Assembly: GCA_035221665.1 (NCBI GenBank)
Contig: CM069139.1
Coordinates: forward strand, 57,350,001 to 57,414,000
DNA length: 64,000 bases
Direction of reading: 5' to 3'
Origin: Okamejei kenojei
Taxonomy: Eukaryota
Shown here piece by piece: positions 36,677 through 42,188 of this stretch; positions within the stretch are counted from its first letter, which is position 1; each line of letters starts with the position of its first letter. A program made the translations under genes and the position numbers. A model generated the notes under the pieces. It was not told the DNA's origin. It saw nothing but the letters and a program-made list of their open reading frames with translations, and did no database searches.

Positions 36677-36963
36677 CTATTGGGCATGAATGTCCATAAC
36701 TTGCCCCCCCACACTGGGGTCTACAGGATTTAACATTGTGGGGCTCTGTGCTGACATTGGCATTCCAGGGTGAGGTGGGGGTCCACCATGCATCATCATG
36801 GCCGGGTGATGTGGGTGACTTGGGAGATAGGGATGCATTGGGGGTCCATGTCTTAACTGGGCAGGGTGTGGGGTCATCTGGGGAGGAGTGTAACTTGGCT
36901 GTGCCATACTCATACCCATAGGACCACCCTGAGATACATAGTCCCCTGGCATGCCTTGTAAAC
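36677..36963 (-). CDS. MEIS2: MEIS2 terminal exon, coding part of long C-terminus
   Basis: ttttcag acceptor; GLQGMPGDYVSQGGPMGMSMAQPSYTPPQMTPHP...VGGQVMDIHAQ* (ORF 36677..36991); phase fits splicing from the 39620 donor. Confidence 0.97.
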
Positions 36964-39619: not shown

Positions 39620-39730
39620 CAGCGGGCCGAATTCCCATATGTTGCTGGCCATCCAATACAAAGCTTCCCATTGGTTGGCCTTCTGGACTGTACGCCGCTC
39701 CTTGGCTTACTGAAGGATCAAGAAGAAAAC
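39620..39730 (-). CDS. MEIS2: MEIS2 exon (~exon 11) with two alternative acceptors (111 or 90 bp)
   Basis: Encodes [37 protein letters not shown]; internal ccttcag acceptor (exon edge 39709) removes GFLLDPS, which is diagnostic of MEIS2; donor GTAAGC. Confidence 0.97.
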
Positions 39731-41249
39731 CTGATTGTAGTCAAACGTGGACACAGAGGAGAAAGAAAAGACATACCAAACAATCAGCAGTTACTCCTGA
39801 AACAGCAGACACAGTATGTTGTTGAACAAAACACATATACACAGAATTTTAAGAAATAAATCAAGCCATCGTCCACTAACCCAACGACCCGCAGTGTACC
39901 CAGATTTAAACATTCCCAGCAGCAACAAAACATATCAAAGGTGCAACTTTATATCGCAAAAGCAGAAACAATGGAGTACTCCAAAGTACAGTTCCTCTCT
40001 CAGTGCCTAGAAGATCTGAAAACTTATTTTGTCCAAGAATGAGGTATTCCTCTGCTTGTGCCAGCCAATGTCACTTAAATTAAAGATTACTTAGTCGGGT
40101 ATTGTGCCCTGATTGTCCCATGATAATTAACTGTGACTATTGTCTACACCTTCTCTAATTGCACTCTGAGCATGAAGCCACCCAGCCAAACATTTAATGG
40201 ATTCATTCAATCAATACTATCAAATTACATAAAACTAAGAATAGTGTTATGAACAGCATGCAATTTATGATGATTAAAAATAAATTACACAGGCAGTTCC
40301 TTAAGTCCTTAATTTATTAAATGCATGCTGCAGTGTGGGTCTGACATTTATAGATCAGATTGATGGGATCAGGGAATTTCACAGCGAAAGGGGAGGCCAT
40401 TCAGCCCACTATGCTTGTGGCAACTCCCTATCTGTACCCCTATATCTTCATGGGTTTTTGTTTTAAGCTTTAAAGCTGTAGCTTGAGGTGACTTCTCTCA
40501 ATTTAGGCAAGGAAGGTGACACTAAGAATTATTTTCCAGAGCTTGAGAATAGGGGAGAAAAATGAAAAAGAAAACAGCCAAGCATACTAGTCTTAGTTTC
40601 TTTCCATTATGCTGTTCTTGATTGTATGTGAGTAATGATTTGGAGAAATGAAAGCATTGGGTTTTGGCAGCTATGCCTCTCCCACGCATGAAGAAATGTA
40701 CTCGGGCAAGGTACTCAGAAGGCACCTGTAGACCCAAATCCCAGTTAGTCAGTGCCTTCAGCAGAGTGAGAGAGGAAATGTTCCTCGCGCTAGCTAGGAT
40801 TGAATGAGTTTTGTTATGCAGCACTGACAATACCCTGACAAATCAAACCAAATTTCTCTCTGGCTGTCACAAAAATCCAGACGTTAGCTCTTGCCCAAAC
40901 TACTCTGTTCACACCACGGTATCATTCCTGATCCCCAAGAAGCACGTTTGACAAGTTGTACACAATTCACAGAAATAAAAAGCACTTTACATATTGAAGT
41001 AAAGCAGCGGGTGCAAATCAACATCAAATCAAAGCAGTGTGAGTGACAATAAAAGGCTTCAATAAAGCTTCTGGCAAACCAACACAGAAGCACACAACTC
41101 CATGGTCGGCACAACATGCTTGTAGATTCAATTTTGTATATAAGCCAAATTAGAATAAAAATGTCCCAGACTGAAATTAAACATTTTTTATCATGGGATT
41201 GACAGAATCTAAAAAGAACATAATTTTACCCTGGTTATTTAGGTGGTTA

Positions 41250-41578
41250 TTTAGTTTAGTTTAGTTTAGTTTAGTTTAGTTTAGAGATACAGCATGGAAA
41301 CAGGCTCTTCGGCCCTCCAAGTCCATGCTAACCAGCGATCCCCACACGCTAACATTATCCTACACACACTAGGGACAATTACTGAATTTACTGAATCCAA
41401 TTAACCTACAAACCAGTATGTCTATGGAGTGTGAGGGGAAACCAGAGAACCCGGAGAAAACCCATGCAGGTCACTGGGAGAACGTACAAGCTATGTACAG
41501 ACAGTACCCGTTGACAGGATCGAACCCATGCCTCTGGCGCTGTAAGGCAGCAACTCTACCGCTGAGCCTCAGTGCCGC
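41250..41578 (-). mobile_element. HE1-like V-SINE with (CTAAA)n tail
   Basis: (TTTAG)n at 41250-41284, then reverse-complement SINE body. Confidence 0.9.
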
Positions 41579-42129
41579 ATCAGTTAGGGGCTATGTTTTC
41601 TGCCCTGCATCAAATGTGGCAATAGAGCACTAAAACTATGCAATACTCAAGCTTACTTTTTACTTTAGAATTACTAACTGGAGCAATATGTTTCAGAGGA
41701 CTTTAACAGTAATTATTTTAAGGGACCCACCGCTATTATTAACAGTAAAAAAACACAGAAGCCATGGCATAATAACAGTGTGTTTACCTAGGAGTTGTGA
41801 GCAGTTAAGAAAGGCATCAGTGGCAGAGAGACAACCAGTGATTTCCGCAGTAACGGCACCCACTCAGCAAGTTATTTGTGGTGCGAAGATATTTGCCCAA
41901 TTACCCTTATTAACCAGAGATAAAAGCAGCCTTGGGAAAGTGAGGGTGGGGAATTCCAGTTGGCATCGGTTAGTGAGATTTCTCCCTGCACCAGAATTCT
42001 GGATAGTTAGCTCTCCCAGATGGTGGCCTGCCTGCCGGGATTATTTACCAGGTGAAGGAACTCCTGATGAATAACTTGATGAAGATTTGTGCCTGCAGGA
42101 CTTGAATACAGTTACTACTTGAGACTTGC

Positions 42130-42188
42130 CTGCTCGATTGGACTGGTCGATCATGGGTTGTACTATTCTTCTCCTGGCATTAATGAAC
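42130..42188 (-). CDS. MEIS2: MEIS2 59-bp exon (~exon 10), end of homeodomain helix 3
   Basis: Encodes (W)FINARRRIVQPMIDQSNRA; ttttag acceptor and non-canonical CAG|GCAAGT donor. Confidence 0.97.

Follow-up and report, generated by a model that had tools for sequence, protein, structure and literature searches.

The animal Meis genes, which encode developmental regulators, contain a short coding segment, exon 10′, which was described by Irimia et al. in 2011 (PMC3140891). In Nematostella and Trichoplax the segment is coded in a single exon, and its alternative splicing is regarded as a bilaterian innovation (PMC3140891). The internal donor is of the GC type in 46% of the genes studied, and for Saccoglossus a third donor is described that falls 42 nt before the full-length end; a 21-nt extension of exon 11 is on record too (PMC3140891). 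Inclusion of exon 10′ is substantial in amphioxus and hemichordates; in vertebrates it was very low by RT-PCR with 10′-specific primers and many cycles, and the segment was excluded from 27/27 human and 6/6 mouse ESTs (PMC3140891). At least nine genomic losses are reported in total, at least six of them in vertebrates, for which the term 'ongoing loss' is used; the MEIS2 copy is given as lost in zebrafish, Xenopus and mammals and as interrupted by stops in chicken (PMC3140891). As far as the consulted sections of that paper go, its species list holds no cartilaginous fish and its authors leave the function of the segment open. A functional study of exon 10′ or a study of Meis splicing in cartilaginous fishes was not found in the literature searched, which covers few subscription journals; the main text of PMC13379096 mentions neither 'exon 10' nor 'intron retention', and PMC3342872, in the parts consulted, adds nothing on exon 10′.

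The window, i.e. the whole stretch of 64,000 nucleotides of Okamejei kenojei DNA that was analysed, holds a copy of this segment. The features are as follows, with a slash marking the exon-intron border in the splice sites:

42130..42188, minus strand: MEIS2 exon 10, 59 nt, encoding the end of homeodomain helix 3
42121..42132, minus strand: proximal GC 5′ splice site CAG/GCAAGT, 8/9 consensus matches; the intron starts at 42129
42049..42129, minus strand: exon 10′, 81 nt or 27 codons, read as an ancestral coding segment and optional extension of exon 10
42041..42051, minus strand: distal GT 5′ splice site CTG/GTAAAT, 7/9 consensus matches; last exonic base 42049, intron from 42048
39731..42048, minus strand: intron 10 as it runs from the distal donor, 2318 nt long (2399 nt if counted from the proximal donor)
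39620..39730, minus strand: MEIS2 exon 11, with two AG acceptors 21 nt apart, at 39730 and 39709
36677..36963, minus strand: coding part of MEIS2 exon 12b (long C-terminus), 94 residues compared

Residue comparison identifies the gene as the MEIS2 of a skate-like fish, as exons 11 and 12b match MEIS2 rather than MEIS1. Exon 11, which has the 21-nt alternative acceptor, shows 0/29 differences from all 11 MEIS2 proteins that contain it (a twelfth compared protein has no exon 11), and the product of exon 10 shows 0/19 differences from 12/12 MEIS2 proteins. Exon 12b is of the MEIS2 type: it is identical over 94 residues to the MEIS2 models of Amblyraja and Leucoraja and differs at 2-5 of 94 positions from the MEIS2 models of the other cartilaginous fishes, against 10-12 for MEIS1, the turtle row, offset by an indel, being left out. 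Exons 1-9 were not found within the window.

The proximal GC site is embedded in Ala-Gly-Lys-Ser codons. Over the initial 400 nt of the intron it matches the donor consensus best of all GT and GC sites, and the distal GT site ranks second. A crude estimate of U1 duplex stability gives −7.4 kcal/mol for the proximal versus −5.3 kcal/mol for the distal site. The initial annotation had placed a GC donor at 42129, a GT donor of the same phase exactly 81 nt further on, and between them an open frame that runs to a TAA at 42043-42041, and these positions are exact; the read-through frame spells a 29-residue peptide before the stop. The frame is kept in all four combinations of the two exon-10 donors with the acceptors at 39730 and 39709. 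Openness of the frame by itself was rejected as evidence, as 5560 of 21620 windows of 27 codons (25.7%) in the upstream intron (64000-42300) are equally open; exon 10′ stands above chance because it has homologues, not because its frame is open. Further into intron 10, at about 41580-41250 on the minus strand, lies an insert whose head is tRNA-like and whose tail is a five-base tandem repeat (41284-41250); it resembles a short interspersed element and may be a SINE. Beyond exon 11, reading past its donor (from 39619 downward, minus strand) gives 77 open codons at the start of intron 11; the Narcine MEIS1 model P0030 likewise reads through this donor, and extensions of this kind are described in sea urchin, hemichordates and arthropods (PMC3140891).

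When exon 10 together with the extension served as query, 255 of 1058 candidates matched. The best 120 were examined; 119 contain the anchor motif (P0114 was dropped), and, having been picked by a query that contains the peptide, their pass rate is not independent. The 27-residue piece alone, compared with 164 anchored Meis proteins, beats all 300 shuffles in 143, so that peptide similarity is present in both orthologues and paralogues; the remaining 21 are models that skip the piece. Identity to the window copy is 24-26 of 27 residues in rays and sharks (26/27 in rays), 23/27 in MEIS2 of birds and turtles, 21/27 in sturgeon MEIS2 and in hemichordates, 17-19/27 in most MEIS1 proteins and 16/27 in Nematostella. 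The MEIS1 read-through proposed in the initial annotation is real, with 17-18/27 identical residues in the mammalian models P0027 and P0052. The proposed isoform with 27 additional amino acids made through the distal donor also has counterparts: in the window this phase-1 donor joins exon 11 in frame, and 29/119 matches are vertebrate models with the same junction (P0074, which the pattern caught wrongly, was dropped). In-frame MEIS2 models with exon 10′ occur in turtle, duck, passerines and sturgeon as well. Bird models of this kind are P0146 and P0150 (passerines) and P0152 (ducks), each 23/27 identical, and a mammalian one is P0029 (Canis lupus baileyi), 17/27 identical. The MEIS2 losses reported for mammals, of which human and mouse were studied, and the stops reported for chicken (PMC3140891) may thus be narrower than stated. 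A search aimed at short transcript-like proteins across exon 10′ and exon 11 gave 10 matches among 51 candidates, of which four unnamed Logan ORFs and one ENA ORF are without a junction to vertebrate exon 11.

Outside the bilaterians, models of sea anemones and corals continue from exon 10′ into the C-terminus without an intron. Of 73 metagenome loci, 49 match the anchor pattern, and among these 49 the only carriers of a 10′-like peptide are four near-identical coral-like loci, here counted as one (L001). Over the first 15 codons of exon 10′, L001 has 4 identical, 8 synonymous and 3 replaced codons relative to the window, with 13, 13 and 5 identities at the three codon positions; over the 19 codons of exon 10 the figures are 6, 12 and 1, and 16, 18 and 7. 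The open frame of L001 extends over 204 codons. On these codon comparisons the pattern is the signature of a coding sequence, and the synonymous-site signal sums all history since the cnidarians rather than showing present selection. Together with the hemichordate and Nematostella identities, it shows a coding sequence shared with invertebrate and non-bilaterian Meis: exon 10′ predates the bilaterians and is far older than the vertebrate duplications. The earlier suggestion of coding constraint across paralogues since those duplications was therefore right as to coding-type conservation in orthologues and paralogues and understated the age. The Saccoglossus models include 0, 13 or 27 residues of exon 10′, in agreement with the third donor described for that genus (PMC3140891), and because of this match we equate the segment in the window with exon 10′ of that paper; it is already known rather than new, and the extension cannot be called 'hidden', as it had been. 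In the hemichordate models P0178 and P0183 (Saccoglossus) and P0107 (Glandiceps) the intermediate donor leaves the first 13 residues of exon 10′, the cut falling within the basic run.

For cartilaginous fishes, the isoforms are automatic predictions. MEIS2 models of 16 species are found among those listed (15 of the 52 members of the main cluster, 9/9 and 1/1 of two others). Six of the 16 have an in-frame exon 10′ spliced to exon 11, namely Chiloscyllium plagiosum, Mobula hypostoma, Hypanus, Hemitrygon, Pristiophorus and Pristis; eight, including the skates Amblyraja and Leucoraja, have no exon 10′ in the models listed. In the other two, Mobula birostris and Narcine bancroftii, exon 10′ is frame-broken, so that the frame-breaking changes in relatives against which the initial annotation had staked its proposal do exist. 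These breaks may be real recent losses or assembly errors; unlike that of Mobula birostris, exon 10′ of Mobula hypostoma is intact. The Mobula birostris models (P0139, P0137 and P0022) are spliced at the distal donor, though not in frame, and read exons 11-12b in another frame, and the Narcine model P0141 stops inside exon 10′. Since an annotation pipeline produced models through the distal donor even though they are out of frame, reads supporting that donor may exist. In one cartilaginous-fish MEIS1 cluster, which was reached via a 10′-bearing protein and of which 15 of 17 members were listed, all 12 full-length members listed carry exon 10′, the three others being partial proteins without the region; six species have a MEIS1 model with exon 10′ and no listed MEIS2 model with it. 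The cartilaginous-fish MEIS2 models also vary in an optional stretch of 17 residues that separates the MEIS domain from the homeodomain and lies outside the window (P0132 and P0124 versus P0125; 494 versus 477 amino acids).

The window copy shows some wear. Of the 27 residues of exon 10′, 1-3 differ from sharks and rays and 4 from bird and turtle MEIS2, while exons 10 and 11 show 0/19 and 0/29 differences over the same comparisons. The window has Gln where 98/119 matches have Pro, His where 93/119 have Arg, and Cys where 91/119 have Arg, the last of these falling in the basic core. Judged from these residues, the segment has lost basic residues, and the constraint on it appears relaxed but not absent.

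We consider it probable that exon 10′ of this gene is a rarely used insert of 27 amino acids in a disordered region behind the homeodomain, held under relaxed constraint. In the animal ancestor, the segment would have followed the homeodomain immediately as normal coding sequence. Bilaterians would then have gained a 5′ splice site inside it, within the Ala-Gly-Lys-Ser codons, where a single synonymous base of the Gly codon decides between GA (no donor), GC and GT, as the compared sequences suggest. The proximal site of L001 reads CAG/GAAAGT and that of the window CAG/GCAAGT, one synonymous base apart, and creation by such a change may explain why the internal donor is so often GC. In the skate the GC site, being nearer the consensus (8/9 versus 7/9), should mostly win over the distal GT site, with removal of the segment, in line with what has been published on other vertebrates. 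The older and weaker GT site would be used occasionally, at a presumably low level in this species, and would yield a protein with a basic, Ser/Pro-rich and disordered insert between the homeodomain and the activation region.

An AlphaFold model of the ray isoform P0124 fits this placement. The model, built on a 31-row alignment, is poor overall (mean pLDDT 51.4, pTM 0.28); in it the homeodomain helix ends at residue 362, exon 10′ (363-389) forms no secondary structure, and the pLDDT stays under 50 over residues 365-394. This predicted lack of structure suggests a disordered region, as expected of a linear motif. A folded role of the insert is unsupported by so low-confidence a model. The ancestral basic run with the serines behind it, part of which is gone from the skate copy, may resemble kinase-site and import-signal patterns. 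Candidate motifs are a PKA-type RRxS site, a basic import signal and SUMO-interacting or kinase-docking patterns, and a phosphorylation or docking motif is our best guess for the peptide.

Rare use of the insert has to be weighed against the view that the skate exon 10′ is a vestige which is no longer productively used and is heading to loss, its readability being due to the slow evolution of cartilaginous fishes and to splice signals or other elements acting at the DNA level. The missing 10′ models in half of the species listed, the skates Amblyraja and Leucoraja among them, the two frame-broken copies and the Arg-to-Cys change in the basic core would all fit this view, as would the six or more vertebrate losses under the heading 'ongoing loss' and the abundance of conserved non-coding elements at Meis loci (PMC3140891). 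However, frame, length and distal donor are intact in the window, 26/27 residues still match rays and 23/27 birds and turtles, and the break in Mobula birostris, absent from Mobula hypostoma, may be an assembly error. Complete disuse is therefore unlikely in our estimation.

Bolder than occasional inclusion, and quite improbable as it stands, is the proposal that exon 10′ is a linear motif of pre-bilaterian age, made up of a hydrophobic stretch, a basic run and serines, which docks a partner or takes a kinase signal behind helix 3. Its presence would be switchable by the synonymous change in the Gly codon, and cartilaginous fishes would still switch it in a tissue- or stage-specific manner, more in MEIS1 than in MEIS2.

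The initial annotation had also offered a truncated MEIS2, in which neither donor is used and the message ends in intron 10, with a stop two codons past exon 10′ and loss of the activation tail (a dominant-negative type of product). An in-frame TAA does stand directly behind the distal donor, 9/119 matches end in GK and a stop, the Narcine MEIS2 model P0141 (frame-broken) and the Nothobranchius MEIS1 model P0072 end unspliced in or behind exon 10′, and intron 10 holds two poly(A)-type hexamers, its only ones (AATAAA at 40318 and ATTAAA at 40198). Yet the proteins ending in GK are eight unnamed contig ORF calls and one hypothetical protein, GK is simply what a GTAAG or GTAAA donor spells, and the hexamers lie 1.7-1.9 kb downstream and are unsupported. 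Conservation of the stop as a sign of a real C-terminus was rejected, since 18/119 read-throughs go beyond GK or GN and the stop is thus not fixed. A stop more than 50-55 nt upstream of a junction leads to degradation of the message by NMD. Here 2421 nt of pre-mRNA separate the stop from the exon-11 donor further downstream. With intron 11 spliced, a message that retains intron 10 should therefore be degraded unless it is cleaved in intron 10, and we hold the truncated product to be very unlikely. Least credible of all is a purely regulatory use, in which competition between the two donors would delay the splicing of intron 10 or change its outcome, leaving part of the RNA retained or degraded and tuning the MEIS2 dose, the peptide being irrelevant today. 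A GC donor has been preserved next to a weak GT donor that is followed by a stop, and the Mobula birostris models take the distal donor out of frame. In the window, however, as in 6 of the 8 cartilaginous fishes that have a listed 10′ model, splicing at the distal donor keeps the frame and would trigger no decay.

Taken as it stands, the locus matters little: Irimia et al. named and dated the element in 2011 and tested it by RT-PCR (PMC3140891), and the insert is already present in publicly available predicted isoforms of rays and sharks. To the patchy loss known so far, the window adds a single cartilaginous-fish copy of MEIS2 exon 10′ that is intact but slightly eroded. What interest remains lies in the function, which is left open in print in the consulted sections of PMC3140891. 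If cartilaginous fishes include exon 10′ at regulated levels, this question would become testable, and if the segment were indeed a switched ancient motif, skate and shark embryos would be the place to learn what it does.

Among known proteins, the closest relatives of the predicted insert are found in predicted MEIS2 isoforms of rays and sharks such as XP_059811702.1 (Hypanus sabinus X1), XP_043553936.1 (Chiloscyllium plagiosum X1) and XP_051880896.1 (Pristis pectinata X4), which carry the corresponding insert of 27 amino acids. In the ray and shark isoforms the insert is spliced to either exon-11 acceptor and is 24-26/27 identical to the window; at the position of the window's Cys their residue is Arg, or Gly in Pristiophorus. 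Predicted MEIS1 isoforms of sharks, rays, mammals, birds and frogs have a homologous insert of equal length at the same place, in most of them 17-19/27 identical, which, unlike the window MEIS2 copy, keeps the Pro and the full basic run. Similar to exon 10′ as described by Irimia et al. (PMC3140891), the segment lies directly 3′ of the constitutive exon 10, has an internal GC donor and a conserved downstream donor, shows coding conservation to non-bilaterians and is followed by an exon 11 with a 21-nt alternative acceptor. Whereas the MEIS2 segment is lost or interrupted in the zebrafish, Xenopus, mammals and chicken of that study, the copy in the window is intact.
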